Part shown: positions 58,208-64,000 of the stretch, one piece after another | Layout of the letters: every line of letters begins with the position of its first letter | Position numbering within the stretch: position 1 is the stretch's first letter | Assembly (NCBI GenBank): GCA_964634905.1 | Contig: CAZWJO010000001.1 | Coordinates: 4,479 to 68,478, forward strand | Length of the DNA: 64,000 nt | Direction: 5' to 3' | Source: an uncultured Sangeribacter sp. | GTDB taxonomy: Bacteria; Bacteroidota; Bacteroidia; Bacteroidales; Muribaculaceae | Made by a program: the position numbers and the translations under genes | Notes under the pieces: model-generated | What the model was told of the DNA's origin: nothing | The model's input: only the letters and a program-made list of their open reading frames with translations | The model's database searches: none

Positions 58208-61200
58208 ATGTCTACATTTAAAATAGCCCAACCAGATTTTTGGTTAGAAATCAGGAAAGAGTACATTATTGAAAATTTTGAAAAACTATTGTATTATATC
58301 AGAAGATATCAATATAACGGTGAGAAAAATTCAGGAAATGGAGAATTTCTCAACACTTGCCGTTATCTTGTTGACCTTGCTGATGAACTTGCTGAGTTTT
58401 CTTTATCCAGGACATTTATTTCTACTCCCGAATTCAAACTCTCTGGGTCTGATATGAATGTTTCTGATGTTTTGGCTTATCGAATTATTGTTGCAGCTAT
58501 TATAGCTTCTCAAAAGATAGGAGAAGACCAGCATTTGCTTATCCGTCGTCTGCTAAATTTGCTTGTTGTGGCACAAAAGATGCCTCATACCGACATTGCA
58601 GACGATTTGATTTATGTAACAACTAATTGTATACGTAAATCTCCAATCATAAACCTGGGTCTGACATGGAATGACATTGAAAATCCGGAGACGTTCACCC
58701 CCATAAGGGTCCTGCATAATCTGAGCCGTACTAAATTCGATGTCAATGGCGGTAAAGAGGCTCTTTATGAGGGTAAAGGCACGGTAGTTTTTACTGAGGA
58801 TGAAGTTTTGGCAGCCCCTGTGAATAAAACTGACTTTCTAAAAGGAAATCTTTCAGAATACATATCTCTTGGCAAAGGCATAAAAGTGCTTCTTCCTAAA
58901 AGTGATCACATGAAAAGTCCTGATTCAGTAGATGATGTTGCTGAGGGGATGACATTTATGACAAGGGCACAAGGAGGAGTCAAGACCAGTACAGCTGATC
59001 CTAAAAGGAAGTATGCAGCGGGCTCTATCATACCAGTGAAAATTCGATCGAGCTATGGCGTAAAAGTTGAGGCTGAAACAATCAACAAGGAATATGAGAA
59101 GATTTCAGGAAAAATCAACATAAACCTACTGGAATCTTTAAGATATGCCGATATTTTTCAGGTATTGACCTTTTTTAGCCCTGGTAGACGTCTTTATGTT
59201 GAGTATACTCCAGATAATAAAGAATTCTGTTTTGAATTGAAGGGGGGGTTCAACCAATTCTATCTTGAATACGCCAATCAAATGAGGGGAGAATCTTTAC
59301 CAGGAGTATATATTGGTGACTATTCGGCAGGCACTCAATGGCTTACGGAGGATGGTTTTGTGGTAAATGTGATGGGTAAAATCACTAAAGAAGAGATGCT
59401 TGAGGCAATGGAACAAAGGATTCCTCTAACAATAAGGATTAACTCTTCTAAAGTTATTCCAGGAACTGTTCTGATCAATGGATCTATTATAGATGACATC
59501 GAACTTTATGGGTTGCCAGATCCTATCGTTGATTTGGAATCTTATCAACATGAATGTTTCATTTATATTTTCAGCCAATTCATTAAATATTGCGATGAAA
59601 GCATCCCTCTGACTTCTACTGACTCGCGTATCAATGAAATTGACAGTAGCGGAGTGATGGAGATAAGCAATATCTTAATGAGTCATCAGCGGCTGCTTTC
59701 TGACACGATGCCTCGACTGCTCTGTCTGCAAACAGCTCTCATGCTTTCGATTACAGCAGGCGACTATACTATTAGCGCATATATACGTCATGAACTTGAA
59801 TATCAAATTGCTATAGCAAGATTTGCTGCCGGAGCCTCTCCTATGTCGATTTCTCTGACTCATGGCCCTAATCTCGATGGGATTCTTGAAGTTGAGAAAC
59901 ACGAGCGAATCATCTCAATGCTTCGCAACTACAAGGAGCCAGAAATCGACCATTCCACTGAAAGGATAACTAACGACGAGAATATTGAAGACACTGTTGA
60001 CGGTCTGATAGATGCATCAAATCGACTGATTGGAAAGATTGACGATAGGGAAATATCACGTATCAAACTTGAATTGGCACGAACTCTCGATGTCGATGAT
60101 CAATATAGAAGTCCGGATTTAACAACTTATTACGGTGTTGAAAGCGACACTTTAGAGTTCAAGATGTCGGCTGTATGCCCTCCTAAAAATAAATTGAAAG
60201 GGTCGGCTGAATATGAACCTGATACTCAAAAATGGGCAATTCTAAAGACTATATGCGGCTTTCTGAATTCAACTACAGGTGGAGAATTGCTCATAGGAGT
60301 AAGAGATAATGGCATTGCTTTTGGAATCTCTCACGATTACGATCTCCTATATGAAGATAGAAGAATTCCTGAACCCAACTCTGACCGATATAGGACTTAT
60401 CTGAAGAATATAATCGACAATTCTTTCATTGCTTATAAATCTCGAGCCCAAAAGAAAAGCGTGACAACTGCCAACATCACGTATAATATCGAGATGAACA
60501 ATGAAGGGCTTGAAATTTTACGCATCCATGTCGACAGCTATCGCGGTGATATGGTCCATTTCCATCCGGATTGCCGTCGGCCCGAAGAAATACATGAATC
60601 TTATATCCGGACAAGTGGGGCTACCGTGCCGATGAGCCATGAGGTGCGTGATCAGACCCTGTTGAAGAAGTATCATCTTGCAGGGGATAAGGAAGGCGTC
60701 GGAATGGCTGCCATTTACGAGGCTCGAAACTCTAAGAAACGCGTTCTTCTAAAAGAATATACGTCAAGGAGCGGAGTGAAAGACCGTGAGATAGAAGTGT
60801 TTCAAGTGTTTCCAGAGTCTAAATGTATCTTAGCTTACGACGTGGCAGCCCGTGATGTCCGTCTATTCAAAACTTTGAGATGGAAGGATGCGAAAATACT
60901 TGACAAAAACTGCACTCAGAGCAGTAGTTCGAAGAGAGATCTCCGTCCTGATATTTTTGGATTCGTGTTTGATCCATCCAAACCCATATATAATGTCGAG
61001 GTACGCCTGACCCACTACGGTGCATTGCTTCTTCAGGAAGAATATCCAGGTGCTGAATCAGTTTTGACTTTGACTGGACACAAGGAATATCCATGGCTCC
61101 TGACTCTAAGCTTAAATACTTTAGAGGGTATTGGAAGGTTTGTTAGGGGTCTGCCTTCGGAATGTTTGGTCGATAAAGGCACAGATCTTGGATCTATGAT

Positions 61201-61210
61201 ATTTATTTAA
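58208..61210 (+). CDS. Multidomain protein: unknown N-terminus (possible S1/OB folds), Schlafen/AlbA_2 domain, WYL and WCX domains
   Basis: AlbA_2 motifs ESDTLEFK, ICGFLNSTTGGELLIGVRDNG, YIRTSG. WYL-like AIYEARNSKKRVLLKEY...REIEVF...ILAYD...VRLFK. WCX-like DIFG...LLQEEYP...GIGRFVRGL. Confidence 0.8.
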   Translation: MSTFKIAQPDFWLEIRKEYIIENFEKLLYYIRRYQYNGEKNSGNGEFLNTCRYLVDLADELAEFSLSRTFISTPEFKLSGSDMNVSDVLAYRIIVAAIIASQKIGEDQHLLIRRLLNLLVVAQKMPHTDIADDLIYVTTNCIRKSPIINLGLTWNDIENPETFTPIRVLHNLSRTKFDVNGGKEALYEGKGTVVFTEDEVLAAPVNKTDFLKGNLSEYISLGKGIKVLLPKSDHMKSPDSVDDVAEGMTFMTRAQGGVKTSTADPKRKYAAGSIIPVKIRSSYGVKVEAETINKEYEKISGKININLLESLRYADIFQVLTFFSPGRRLYVEYTPDNKEFCFELKGGFNQFYLEYANQMRGESLPGVYIGDYSAGTQWLTEDGFVVNVMGKITKEEMLEAMEQRIPLTIRINSSKVIPGTVLINGSIIDDIELYGLPDPIVDLESYQHECFIYIFSQFIKYCDESIPLTSTDSRINEIDSSGVMEISNILMSHQRLLSDTMPRLLCLQTALMLSITAGDYTISAYIRHELEYQIAIARFAAGASPMSISLTHGPNLDGILEVEKHERIISMLRNYKEPEIDHSTERITNDENIEDTVDGLIDASNRLIGKIDDREISRIKLELARTLDVDDQYRSPDLTTYYGVESDTLEFKMSAVCPPKNKLKGSAEYEPDTQKWAILKTICGFLNSTTGGELLIGVRDNGIAFGISHDYDLLYEDRRIPEPNSDRYRTYLKNIIDNSFIAYKSRAQKKSVTTANITYNIEMNNEGLEILRIHVDSYRGDMVHFHPDCRRPEEIHESYIRTSGATVPMSHEVRDQTLLKKYHLAGDKEGVGMAAIYEARNSKKRVLLKEYTSRSGVKDREIEVFQVFPESKCILAYDVAARDVRLFKTLRWKDAKILDKNCTQSSSSKRDLRPDIFGFVFDPSKPIYNVEVRLTHYGALLLQEEYPGAESVLTLTGHKEYPWLLTLSLNTLEGIGRFVRGLPSECLVDKGTDLGSMIFI

Positions 61211-61218
61211 TATTTAAG

Positions 61219-62184
61219 ATGGAAACAGATAAGATCAAAAAAGATATGATGGAGTTGTGGAAAGAGACCTTCCATGACTCCTTTCATTATATAAGACTCG
61301 TTTTTGACACTTATTTCACCCCGGATAATGCTTTTACTGTCTACGACGGAGAAAAACTTATAGCCGCTTTATTAGGAGTGGAATATGAATTCTATGTCCT
61401 CAATGAGAATAATCAGACTATTAGTTTGAAGGGATTATATTTATGTGGCCTTGCAACTCATCCGGAATATAGGAAAAGGGGAATAATGGCTAAGCTGATG
61501 AACGAAGCTGAAATTTCTGCCAAGTCAAGAGGATTCTCAATATCATTTCTCATTCCTGCTGATTCTCATCTTAGGGAGTATTATTGCAAAAAAGGATATG
61601 AGACTACTTCATTCAGGCTAATCAAACAGATCTCCAGGACTTGCTTTGACAACAAGAGTAAAATGAATATTTATACATTTCGGTACTTCTTCGATGAAGG
61701 AAATTATGATTTTTTGAACGAACTGGCACAATGGTGCAGAGAGAGAGAAAAGCCAAATTTAACGTATGTGTCACTCAAGCATTCGAGGAAGGATTTCGTC
61801 ACGATTATGTTAGAAAATGAGAATTCATTTTTTTTGACCGAGCCATCATTCGATCCAAAATATCCGATTCTCGCAAAAGTGAGGGCAGTGGTGTTTCCGG
61901 CAGAGGTAGATGAAAAGAATCATCGATGGAGAATAGTGGGAATCTTCCTTAGAGATGTTGAAGAGTTTTTTAGTGAAAAGGAGGAAGATTTTAGGTTTTC
62001 CTCAGAGATCTTTTCAGCTATTCAGAGCCTCCATTCAGAATGTAAACTTGAACTTTGTCTATCATATATAGGAACCCTAAGAGGTGAAGTTGAGCCCTAC
62101 GCAATGGTCAAGTTTTTAGATAGAGATGAAATAAGTGATAATTTTGAGAATCTTCCTTTCAATATTTCTTTAATGTTGGATTGA
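61219..62184 (+). CDS. GNAT family acetyltransferase
   Basis: LWKETFHD, YLCGLATHPEYRKRGIM, LIPA, YYCKKGY. Confidence 0.88.
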   Translation: METDKIKKDMMELWKETFHDSFHYIRLVFDTYFTPDNAFTVYDGEKLIAALLGVEYEFYVLNENNQTISLKGLYLCGLATHPEYRKRGIMAKLMNEAEISAKSRGFSISFLIPADSHLREYYCKKGYETTSFRLIKQISRTCFDNKSKMNIYTFRYFFDEGNYDFLNELAQWCREREKPNLTYVSLKHSRKDFVTIMLENENSFFLTEPSFDPKYPILAKVRAVVFPAEVDEKNHRWRIVGIFLRDVEEFFSEKEEDFRFSSEIFSAIQSLHSECKLELCLSYIGTLRGEVEPYAMVKFLDRDEISDNFENLPFNISLMLD

Positions 62185-62231
62185 ATTCCTGAAAGAATGA
62201 ATTCTCAAAGCCTTATTCAAATCACAAATTA

Positions 62232-62278
62232 CCCCAAAATGCTTGCATTCAAGCATTTTGGGGCAATTATTTTTTTTT
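62232..62278 (+). terminator. Terminator after the GNAT gene
   Basis: Perfect 14-bp stem CCCCAAAATGCTTG-CATT-CAAGCATTTTGGGG followed by a T-tract. Confidence 0.8.
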
Positions 62279-62434
62279 ATTTTCAAGAGCAATGAGAGAA
62301 TTTGATTAATGAGCCATTCGCACATCATTAAATTGGTCAAATTTTCAGTTTTATCAATGATCGGAGAAAAATAGGGGAGGGGAGGACTGGTCAAAAAGAG
62401 AACTTCATTTATAGTTCAATATACGCAAATTAAA

Positions 62435-62930
62435 AATTTGCAATTTTAATTTTAAAATGCACATTTGCAATTCCAAATACCAAATAAAAGTGACTTGATT
62501 TCAAATTACGAATTTCAAATAGCAAATACTTATATGTCGATTAAGAAAAGGTCTAAATTGCAAATTTACTTTTCAAAACGTTTGCAAATACATTATAAAA
62601 CGAATTAACATTTATTAATATTTATTTTAATTACTCTTTAATCAATAAATTAGCTATAATACTTAATTAACATTTTTAAATTCCTGTATTTTCTTTGCTG
62701 TATTTTATATCTCCTTTTATGACTTTAATAAACTCGCTAAAAGTGGCTTTGATTATCATCTAAATATAGCTAACCTCTATAATTAATTTTAAAAATCAAA
62801 TTTGCAAAACTTAATAGATGGTTCTGTAAGTTGCAATTTGCAATTTTAAAATTTAAATTCAAAAACTCATTTCTAAAATTTGAAATTTGCATTTTTTTTT
62901 GTAACTTTGCAACTCTAAAAATAAATGCAA
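62435..62930. repeat. Two clusters of 7-bp-periodic TTGCAAT-like repeats in AT-rich DNA
   Basis: Eight exact TTGCAA palindromes (62438, 62465, 62558, 62582, 62802, 62831, 62838, 62907). AATTTGCAATTTTAA occurs at both 62435 and 62835. Confidence 0.75.
62902..62909 (+). promoter_or_regulatory. -7 promoter element of the HTH gene
   Basis: TAACTTTG about 30 bp upstream of the ATG at 62942, overlapping a TTGCAA unit. Confidence 0.65.
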
Positions 62931-62941
62931 ATATTGAGATC

Positions 62942-63463
62942 ATGGAGGAAAATTTCGCCACTCGTCTAAAACTCTTTATGGACAGTATTAACGTACAGTC
63001 CTCTCAGTTCGCAGATATGTGCGAAATTCCTCGTCCTTCTTTCTCTCAGCTTCTTTCCGGACGCAACCAAAAGGTAAGTGATACACTTATCAAAAAGATC
63101 CATACTGCTTATCCTGATCTCTCTGTCATGTGGTTGATGTTCGGCGAAGGTCCAATGCTGTCGGTGCCAGATAAAAATAGAAACTCAGGATCTAATCAAA
63201 ATCAAAATCCTCCTGATGATTCTTCAAATTCTAAAGATTTGCTTGGTAATACCCGGGAAAATTCTGAATATTACGCTCAGAATGTCTTAAATCAGCCTCA
63301 AAATCTAACTAATGGTAATATATATCAGCAACTTGAAGAAAACAAGAAAATCCTGGAACTACAGCTTCAAATAGACAAAATGAAAAAAAATCCCCGAAGA
63401 GTGGCTCAGATCACTGTTTACTACGATGATTCTACCTTCGAAACCTTTGTCCCGGCTAAATAG
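62942..63463 (+). CDS. XRE/Cro-C1 helix-turn-helix protein with low-complexity linker and C-terminal beta-hairpin motif
   Basis: RLKLFM...SSQFADMCEIPRPSFSQLLSGRN...WLMFGEGPM; N/Q/S-rich linker; ends RRVAQITVYYDDSTFETFVP. ATG at 62942 (TTG at 62831 lies in the repeat array). Confidence 0.85.
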   Translation: MEENFATRLKLFMDSINVQSSQFADMCEIPRPSFSQLLSGRNQKVSDTLIKKIHTAYPDLSVMWLMFGEGPMLSVPDKNRNSGSNQNQNPPDDSSNSKDLLGNTRENSEYYAQNVLNQPQNLTNGNIYQQLEENKKILELQLQIDKMKKNPRRVAQITVYYDDSTFETFVPAK

Positions 63464-63829
63464 ACCGCTTTCTATTTGGGATGATACCTTCTAATAAGTT
63501 TTTTTGGGCATTTCTCATGAAACGACTACGGGAAATCTTTAAACTTAGAAGACTCTCCATTGCACTGTAAAAAACCTTCTAATATTTTAGAATCTTTGAT
63601 CCTTTGTAAAGACCTTTTTTATATATTAGATTCTCATCGCCTTAACTACCATTTATACTTATATTATATAATGTGAGTATCAATGACTTGGGTCCTCCCC
63701 AAAAAGTTAAGCATTTCCTTTATAAAAAAGAAAAAACAGGGTAAAAATCTAATAATTTTAATAATTTATTATATTTATAAATTTATTCAAATAATTTGTA
63801 TAAGAACTTCTGTGATATCTTACGTATAA

Positions 63830-63857
63830 AATTCATATAATCCGTATTATGTTAAGT
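63830..63857 (+). other. dif: dif site (XerC/XerD recombination site)
   Basis: AATTCATATAA-TCCGTA-TTATGTTAAGT: 11-6-11 architecture. XerD arm matches E. coli TTATGTTAAAT at 10/11; XerC arm ends ATAA. Intergenic and AT-rich. Confidence 0.8.
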
Positions 63858-63927
63858 AGAGTGTTATGAGTTATTTGTGATAATATTTGTTCTTAAGAAA
63901 AAATGTCTCGAGGAATGTTATTATAAT

Positions 63928-64000
63928 ATGGAAGTGACAGAAAATATGATGGAGTTTGTGCGAAAGCACGCTAACGACGATGTAAATGCCTTGCGTCTTA
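63928..64000 (+). CDS. Start of a probable SAM-dependent methyltransferase / THUMP-like protein (3' truncated)
   Basis: MEVTENMMEFVRKHANDDVNALRL resembles the FIxxHxxDDVxxLxL N-terminus of that Bacteroidetes family. Only 24 codons are visible. Confidence 0.45.
   Translation, partial: MEVTENMMEFVRKHANDDVNALRL

Follow-up and report, generated by a model that had tools for sequence, protein, structure and literature searches.

Organization of the Locus

The window analysed here is a stretch of 64,000 nucleotides (C1:4479-68478) from a Muribaculaceae assembly of 3.28 Mb (labelled G000; 209 contigs, 77% complete), and the subject of this report is a gene for a helix-turn-helix (HTH) protein that lies in it next to the chromosomal dif site. 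The HTH gene is read from the plus strand, from an ATG at 62942 to a stop codon at 63463, and its product (P0001) has 173 amino acids (aa). It stands alone between an upstream spacer, the leader, of 757 bp (62185-62941, 75% AT) and a downstream spacer of 464 bp (63464-63927, 74% AT), compared with 59% AT in the window outside these two spacers. A lone HTH gene between two AT-rich blocks had been described in the first-pass annotation of this DNA, and the measured composition agrees with that description. The HTH gene is preceded by a GNAT acetyltransferase gene (61219-62184) and, together with dif, is followed by an S-adenosylmethionine (SAM) methyltransferase gene starting at 63928. The coordinates of the individual features are listed in Table 1.

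Chromosomal dif Site and Replication Terminus

The dif site begins 366 nt past the stop codon of the HTH gene, at the distance given by the first-pass annotation, and has an 11-6-11 layout. Of its 28 bases, 20 are the same as in the Escherichia coli dif consensus, and the XerD arm departs from the E. coli arm by one base. The site is the sole strongly conserved block of the downstream spacer. The dif core pattern YATAATNNNNWTTATGTTRAA had a single match in 75 of 151 Muribaculaceae genomes and two matches in one, while the reversed pattern, used as a control, gave one match in the same 151 genomes; across Bacteroidales, the core pattern was matched in 169 of 301 genomes. For Bacteroidetes, Kono et al. 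obtained dif predictions in 19 of 19 genomes, using a proteobacterial profile in 14 (PMC3025954).

The site coincides with the plus-to-minus switch of the GC skew in genomes G137, G424, G416, and G388. In G424 and G416, both complete, the maximum of the cumulative GC skew falls in or beside the dif bin, 50-54 kb from the HTH gene. Sampling of the skew over the whole G388 genome placed the origin at ~2.3 Mb and the terminus at ~0-0.4 Mb, with dif at 16.7 kb. On contig C1 of the genome studied here, the skew is positive up to dif and negative a few kb past it, with 10 kb of contig remaining. The contigs of two metagenome-assembled genomes (G112 and G008) show a local plus-to-minus switch at dif and are noisy elsewhere, probably due to assembly or rearrangement; the skew inference was based on the complete genomes instead of these contigs.

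Each locus carries one dif-like site only. Between two congeners (G044:C6 ~68300 and G014:C1 ~69900; L072 and L073), a segment of ~50 bp containing dif is inverted, with 86% identity in the inverted orientation and with collinear genes on both sides, which indicates local recombination activity.

Distribution of the HTH Gene and Its Linkage to dif

The HTH gene was present in 137 of 151 Muribaculaceae genomes, including 114 of the 119 high-quality ones, mostly in one copy. In Bacteroidales, an HTH profile had matches in 266 of 301 genomes (more than 130 GTDB families), as a rule a single, full-length match in each. When genomes were sampled across the phylum, 27 of 251 contained the family, with no matches in the two largest families sampled; in this sample, it is confined to Bacteroidales and a few sister families.

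The gene and dif were located on one contig in 42 Muribaculaceae genomes, 0.06-2.7 kb apart in 27 of them and 5.8 kb apart in one, the 27 close pairs spanning 12 genera (11 and that of the present genome). In addition, 80 related loci were fetched with 10-kb flanks and searched for dif, which in 11 of the 13 closest relatives lies 77-431 bp downstream of the gene. In another 17 loci, it is 4.4-5.2 kb downstream; the control pattern had zero matches in the 1.29 Mb of these 80 loci. A prophage filling the interval of 4.4-5.2 kb was considered and rejected, as the interval contains a gene for a protein with a type IX secretion system (T9SS) signal and a UvrA paralog. In 21 loci centred on the gene-dif pair, the flanking genes were almost wholly different between genera, with the HTH gene, pyrK, and pyrD alone recurring. 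The placement of dif varied among loci: it lies 5' (0.75-1.2 kb) or 3' (60-430 bp) of the HTH gene, on either arm and in either orientation.

Order-level distances were determined in nine complete (single-contig) genomes from nine families (Table 2). In these genomes, which are not independent samples, the median distance of the HTH gene to dif was 21 kb, compared with 705 kb for tpiA (19 kb to 1.3 Mb) and 113 kb for dnaA (16 kb to 1.7 Mb); lepA was 0.95-2 Mb from dif in the complete genomes and abuts dif in one Muribaculaceae genus. Across Bacteroidales, the HTH gene is thus kept much closer to dif and the terminus than the control genes, and the terminus linkage is real and unusually tight. 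The suggestion of the first-pass annotation that orthologs with an HTH and an I.V.Y.D.TF C-terminus lie near dif held in both Muribaculaceae and Bacteroidales.

Table 2. Distance between the HTH gene and dif in nine complete Bacteroidales genomes.
Genome	Gene-to-dif distance	Genome size
G388	3.6 kb	4.8 Mb
G312	8.7 kb	4.5 Mb
G216	11.8 kb	3.9 Mb
G401	18 kb	5.4 Mb
G423	21 kb	3.4 Mb
G382	22 kb	4.1 Mb
G424	50 kb	5.1 Mb
G416	54 kb	4.9 Mb
G247	234 kb	4.6 Mb

Two side observations were made in the complete genomes. The dnaA gene lies 16-270 kb from dif in six of the nine, and in G388 (C1:1-20000, L333) the skew puts it on the terminus side, ~2.3 Mb off the skew-inferred origin; dnaA in Bacteroidales is often not near the origin. 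In G247 (C1:1250001-1650000, L358-L377), two plus-to-minus switches are present, one at dif (1.336 Mb) and the other at ~1.53 Mb; the latter is the global cumulative maximum and lies ~35 kb from the HTH gene. The 140-kb segment of positive skew between the two switches may stem from a recent inversion or a large insertion in the interval separating the gene and dif.

Site Arrays and Probable Promoter in the Leader

The leader contains 11 matches to TTTGCA/TGCAAA at nine places (mean 0.47 and maximum 4 in 2000 shuffles), while the coding region and the equally AT-rich downstream spacer contain none. Nine TTTGCAA copies in 500 bp of the leader are the maximum of the genome, the next cluster having four. 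The half-sites fall into a distal and a proximal group, each of which holds inverted longer units of the form TTTTAAAA-N5-6-ATTTGCAA (I5 and I6). The probable promoter of the HTH gene matches the Bacteroidetes consensus TTTG / TAnnTTTG; its -7 box is bracketed by the inverted pair ATTTGCAT / ATGCAAAT (I18), and two motif copies overlap or fall inside this promoter, a point absent from the first-pass annotation. The arrays had been presented there as heptad arrays. The dense TTTGCA cluster was recovered, but the 7-bp periodicity proved overstated: Tandem Repeats Finder reported a single 7-bp tandem (62831-62846, 2.3 copies), and the other spacings are not multiples of 7.

In seven close relatives (57-75% protein identity), the sites and the whole proximal 150 bp, which is the best conserved stretch of the leader, are retained, while the remaining spacer has diverged. 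The leaders of Muribaculaceae orthologs have 62-76% AT with TTTGCAA or TTTACAA sites, and nearly every orthologous locus has a TTACATTTGCA box ~30 nt ahead of the ATG. Other Bacteroidales families have the palindrome TTACA-NN-TGTAA as their motif, with a proximal site over the -7 box and a group of distal sites between -300 and -580. The leaders of genes for Gln36 proteins hold 11.9 TTTGCA-type and 6.8 TTTACA-type half-sites per kb, and those for His36 proteins 1.4 and 8.1 per kb, respectively. The half-site thus varies together with the recognition helix (TTTGCA with Gln36, TTTACA with His36), as the first-pass annotation had anticipated; this co-variation, confounded by phylogeny, would be supportive of recognition of the half-sites by the HTH rather than proof of it.

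Exact copies of TTACAWWTGTAA were counted in five complete genomes. The gene's own leader holds 2-4 of them in four genomes and one in G388. Outside the leader, 1-11 copies were found against 2-15 for the reversed control, scattered and with no enrichment at the terminus (ter). As a separate observation, exact TTACATATGTAA palindromes occur as a second pair in G312 (C1:1639138-1643570, L336), at 4-5 kb from the HTH gene and on the two sides of a transposase-like open reading frame (ORF), a KilA-N-like ORF, and an ORF of 836 aa.

Table 1. Features of the HTH gene-dif locus (positions in the window).
Feature	Position	Strand	Description
Direct repeat ATTCTCAnnGCCTTA, left copy	62201..62215	+	Upstream edge of the module; position kept in close relatives
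Intrinsic-terminator hairpin of the GNAT gene	62232..62263	+	14-bp stem with 7 GC pairs, T run after it
G-rich block in the AT-rich leader	62334..62410	+	TGGTCA...AATAGGGGAGGGGAG..CTGGTCAAAAAG; conserved in 7 close relatives
Distal operator cluster (putative)	62437..62588	.	TTTGCA half-sites at 62437, 62464, 62559 (reverse), 62581/62583 (palindrome TTTGCAAA)
Conserved TTAACATTTATTAA element between the clusters	62605..62618	.	Most columns invariant among relatives; Tandem Repeats Finder row 62604-62626
Proximal operator cluster (putative)	62785..62935	.	Sites at 62801/62803, tandem TTGCAAT at 62831-62846, 62886, 62906, 62926 (reverse)
Probable promoter	62879..62909	+	-33 TTTG (62879-62882), 19-nt spacer, -7 TAACTTTG (62902-62909)
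HTH gene (P0001)	62942..63463	+	Cro/C1-type HTH, disordered linker, helix, conserved C-terminal beta hairpin ITVYYDDSTFETF
Direct repeat, right copy (ATTCTCATCGCCTTA)	63630..63644	+	Position kept in close relatives
Chromosomal dif	63830..63857	+	28-mer AATTCATATAATCCGTATTATGTTAAGT: XerC arm, 6-bp spacer, XerD arm TTATGTTAAGT

Domain Architecture of P0001

The AlphaFold2 (AF2) model of P0001 consists of a five-helix HTH domain (residues 5-67, with helices at 5-16, 20-26, 31-39, 47-56, and 62-67), a disordered linker (74-124), a long helix (126-149), and a beta hairpin (157-169). The N-terminal domain has the five-helix bundle with the HTH in helices 2-3 that is characteristic of the Cro/C1 (XRE) type. 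The best Foldseek match was 434 Cro (2cro; TM-score 0.85 relative to the target, root-mean-square deviation 1.6 Å), and the other leading matches, with 2xcj and 3jxb among the structures, were 434 repressor, P2 C, P22 c2, and SinR. The leading matches had a probability of 1.0 and TM-scores of up to 0.87 relative to the target, with E-values of just ~1e-2. Pfam and NCBIfam assigned no significant family to P0001, the best Pfam match being the below-threshold HTH_26 (E=0.17; 12.6 bits against a cut-off of 22), and in a PDB profile search the P2 C repressor at E=0.65 was the sole sequence match. The homologs P0115, P0117, and P0119 carry PF01381, and the nearest Atlas clusters carry HTH_3, HTH_26, or Phage_CI_repr; a cluster look-up gave no named ortholog from a model organism. 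The S24 peptidase domain of lambda CI and LexA-type repressors was not detected in P0001 by Pfam, and the C-terminus is made up of the helix and hairpin (~48 aa). AF2, Foldseek, and Pfam thus agree on the architecture read by the first-pass annotation, namely, a Cro/C1 HTH, a linker, a helix, and a terminal beta hairpin without S24.

In an alignment of 24 relatives, the N-terminal 73 residues are highly conserved, the linker is variable and of low complexity, and the C-terminus is again conserved (NPRRVxQITVYYDDSTFETFxP). A profile of the C-terminal 55 residues, compared with 1.84 billion representative proteins, matched 206 clusters. In these, the module forms the very end of proteins of 140-320 aa, on the C-terminal side, or occurs in shorter fragments, the one exception being a long coiled-coil protein in which the helix part alone was matched; no other protein architecture with the module was found in this set. 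The C-terminal module is thus private to the P0001 family, and it represents a new family signature outside the coverage of Pfam.

Proposed Role of P0001 and Alternative Explanations

P0001, which is lineage-specific and occurs once per genome in most Bacteroidales, is probably an autoregulated Cro/CI-like repressor with a position-dependent role. The N-terminal HTH would most likely recognise the TTTGCA half-sites (TTACA-NN-TGTAA palindromes in other families), arranged in the gene's own AT-rich leader as two putative operator clusters, one over the -33/-7 promoter and the other 300-500 bp upstream. The flexible linker, together with the C-terminal helix and hairpin, may allow subunits to oligomerise across the variably spaced sites, and such oligomers could loop the leader and repress transcription of the gene itself, as well as that of pyrK-pyrD where these genes are located downstream. 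From the architecture of the protein, the conserved site arrays, their co-variation with the recognition helix, and the clustering of the sites in the leader of the gene itself, we infer that P0001 would bind, oligomerise, form a loop, and repress its own gene. The terminus position of the gene looks selected. The most likely reason is that the control circuit depends on gene dosage or on the timing of replication at ter, or that the protein has a local cis role at ter.

The closest known counterparts of such a repressor are the phage Cro/C1 proteins. P0001 shares the five-helix HTH fold with 434 Cro and repressor, P22 c2, and P2 C, and the phage operators are likewise short AT-rich ACA..TGT half-sites forming palindromes of 12-14 bp, several of which are arranged in two groups over the repressor's own promoter. 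Unlike the phage repressor genes, the HTH gene is a chromosomal core gene of Bacteroidales with a position tied to dif. A phage origin was considered and rejected, as no relative was found in IMG/VR (pattern scan) or in 50,697 GenBank phages (tblastn). P0001 also differs from CI in lacking an S24/CI-type C-terminal domain, in place of which it has a disordered linker of 50 aa, one helix, and the family-specific hairpin.

Several observations weigh against an autoregulated repressor tied to the terminus. In 14 of the 42 Muribaculaceae genomes with gene and dif on one contig, the two are 13-113 kb apart, so adjacency is not obligatory, and about 50 of the 80 related loci have no dif within 10 kb. 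The distances of dnaA indicate that some other genes also tend to a terminus-side position, and since ter-symmetric inversions keep a gene's distance from ter, some of the positional conservation may be historical. The Gln type is found mostly in Muribaculaceae, which is the source of the phylogenetic confounding of the helix/half-site co-variation. Finally, some of the array could consist of promoter-like sequence and not of operators, given the similarity of the half-site to the -7 and -33 elements of Bacteroidetes promoters in general.

A more ambitious reading, which we regard as rather unlikely, is that P0001 acts as a Bacteroidales-specific terminus factor that would be loaded on the arrays beside its own gene and act in cis on the dif region. 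Such a factor might mark converging forks or slow them down, keep ter in place for the divisome via the hairpin, or gate Xer recombination and dif-integrating elements. If true, it would correspond in function to Tus/RTP, MatP, or XafT but be built on a Cro-like scaffold unrelated to theirs. The broader interpretation of the first-pass annotation, that of a terminus-organising system, fared unevenly: the linkage to dif and the co-variation with the helix were borne out, but the mechanisms proposed there found no support.

Bacteroidales are a dominant group of gut bacteria, a paper of 2011 stated that dimer resolution had not been studied in the Bacteroidetes phylum (PMC3091885), and our literature search found no account of how Bacteroidales terminate replication, resolve chromosome dimers, or segregate ter. 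P0001 would be the first testable candidate for a terminus-associated factor in this order: a conserved, single-copy, lineage-specific putative DNA-binding protein encoded near dif despite a scrambled gene order gives a concrete gene for tractable species. If it were just an autorepressor, it would still clearly exemplify selection on where in the chromosome a regulator gene lies.

An ordinary regulator of the pyrK-pyrD (dihydroorotate dehydrogenase) operon, with a terminus position inherited from history and without function, is an improbable explanation. In at least 40 genomes of many families, six of the nine complete genomes among them, pyrK-pyrD or pyrD comes immediately downstream of the HTH gene and is nearly always encoded on the same strand. 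Across most of Bacteroidales, the HTH gene is usually the first of an HTH-pyrK-pyrD cluster, which had not been mentioned in the first-pass annotation. This arrangement points to co-transcription of the genes or to an ancestral cluster that they shared near dif. Where the two linkages are at odds, it is dif that the HTH gene keeps to: in G216, G334, and G416, pyrD is 1.4-1.5 Mb from the HTH gene, which is still 12-54 kb from dif, and in G000, pyrD is located on another contig and the HTH gene is still beside dif. In the latter genome, pyrK and pyrD are fused into an ORF of 569 aa away from the HTH gene (C92:7684-9393), and the 500 bp upstream of the fused gene contain no half-site. These two observations argue that P0001 is not simply a pyr regulator; moreover, no ligand-binding domain was recognised in it by Pfam or in the AF2 model. 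As a side observation, the fused ORF comes directly after the apparent end of carB.

A replication terminator comparable to Tus or RTP, in which P0001 on the inverted clusters would be a fork barrier that keeps fork fusion near dif in addition to regulating its own gene, is quite doubtful. The genes of Tus and RTP are located in the terminus region and are autoregulated by a ter site in their own promoter, and their homologs are taxonomically narrow (PMC10331603). The layout of Tus-Ter (Enterobacterales) and RTP-Ter (Bacillus subtilis), a terminus gene with sites in its own promoter, is shared by the HTH gene if P0001 binds as predicted. The sites are confined to the gene's own leader, both clusters contain inverted units, and the terminus-proximal position holds across Bacteroidales. 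Against this, neither Tus nor RTP appeared in the PDB profile search or the Foldseek list, the fold of P0001 being unrelated to theirs, and the arrays lie on one side of dif only, with polarity nowhere indicated. The skew switches at dif in G424 and G416, 50-54 kb off the gene, and not at the putative P0001 sites, so there is no sign of forks meeting at the arrays; G247, with its two switches, is ambiguous in this respect. The resemblance to Tus and RTP is one of layout and not of membership.

A function in recombination at dif has an equally small chance of being correct. P0001 could be an accessory factor or activator of Xer, like XafT, or a host immunity repressor acting against dif-integrating elements such as integrative mobile elements exploiting Xer recombination (IMEX) and Bacteroidales microviruses. 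In many lineages, the HTH gene directly adjoins dif, the side and the orientation both being variable; the module is flanked by a direct repeat, and the dif segment of ~50 bp is inverted between otherwise collinear congeners. XafT is a small phage-encoded activator of XerD (PMC9226527), and microviruses integrate at dif-like sites in Bacteroidales (PMC3091885). A gene conserved next to dif across a clade has a parallel in streptococci, where xerS is kept beside difSL; xerS, however, encodes the recombinase itself, and P0001 is an HTH protein without a catalytic domain. The half-sites showed no enrichment, and the operator motif was not found at all, within 160 bp of dif in 21 loci, the arrays being 0.7-1.4 kb away. 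The P0001 sites thus do not flank the recombination site as those of Xer accessory systems do (ArgR/PepA at cer), which speaks against the Xer accessory factor suggested in the first-pass annotation. Nor does the HTH gene belong to a dif-bounded element or to the phage genomes searched, as would be expected of an IMEX or prophage repressor: each locus has a single dif-like site, the phage collections named above contain no homolog, and no operator arrays were seen among 80 viral contigs listed with a dif-like site, a sample not aimed at Bacteroidales phages.

The least probable explanation is that of the first-pass annotation itself, in which P0001 polymerises on the arrays as a single loading site and tethers dif to the divisome in the manner of MatP or ZapT. 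In common with MatP-matS and ZapT of Caulobacter, P0001 is a small ter-associated putative DNA-binding protein with a C-terminal region of the oligomerisation or interaction type, and the terminus linkage, the flexible linker, the oligomerisation-type helix, and the strictly conserved, family-only hairpin, a possible protein-interaction motif, would suit an anchor. MatP is described as binding 23 matS sites spread over a domain of 800 kb (PMC3330122). In contrast, exact P0001 sites are confined to one leader in the five complete genomes, those outside it being scattered and at the frequency of the reversed control, without a matS-like set across ter; the Cro-like fold differs from that of MatP (four-helix bundle, ribbon-helix-helix, and coiled coil), and the locus is 10-50 kb from dif in many genomes, all of which leaves bridging or anchoring of the terminus without support.

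Other Features of the Module and Its Surroundings

The 15-mer ATTCTCAnnGCCTTA has just two copies in the 3.28-Mb assembly, located 1429 bp apart and bracketing the leader and the HTH gene. The two copies might be a former pair of attachment sites, or a binding site. A generic search for flanking direct repeats performed no better than its reversed control, and the specific ATTCTCAnnGCCTTA motif alone stands out. A string similar to ATTCTCAnnGCCTTA within the coding region encodes the conserved NLxGL segment. An Rfam search of 62100-64000 gave just sub-threshold matches, which fell on the terminator hairpin of the GNAT gene. A search for sequencing runs that contain the locus listed none.

The G-rich block of the leader is preceded by TGGTCAAATTTTC and has no Rfam match; a pattern search with it recovers the nearest relatives only. 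A CTCCCCTCC string resembling the block is present in another genus (L007, L018, and L021), in the opposite orientation and ~120 nt before the ATG.

The neighbours in ~10 kb around the HTH gene encode, besides the GNAT acetyltransferase and the SAM methyltransferase, a Schlafen/AlbA_2 protein, an extracytoplasmic function (ECF) sigma factor, a TonB receptor, a HemN-like protein, and an alanyl-tRNA synthetase (AlaRS). No phage or recombinase genes are among the neighbours scanned within this distance, in line with the earlier remark that phage genes are lacking nearby. The Schlafen/AlbA_2 protein (1000 aa, domain at residues 645-809) is encoded two genes upstream of the HTH gene (window positions 58208-61210) and is possibly the product of a defence gene.

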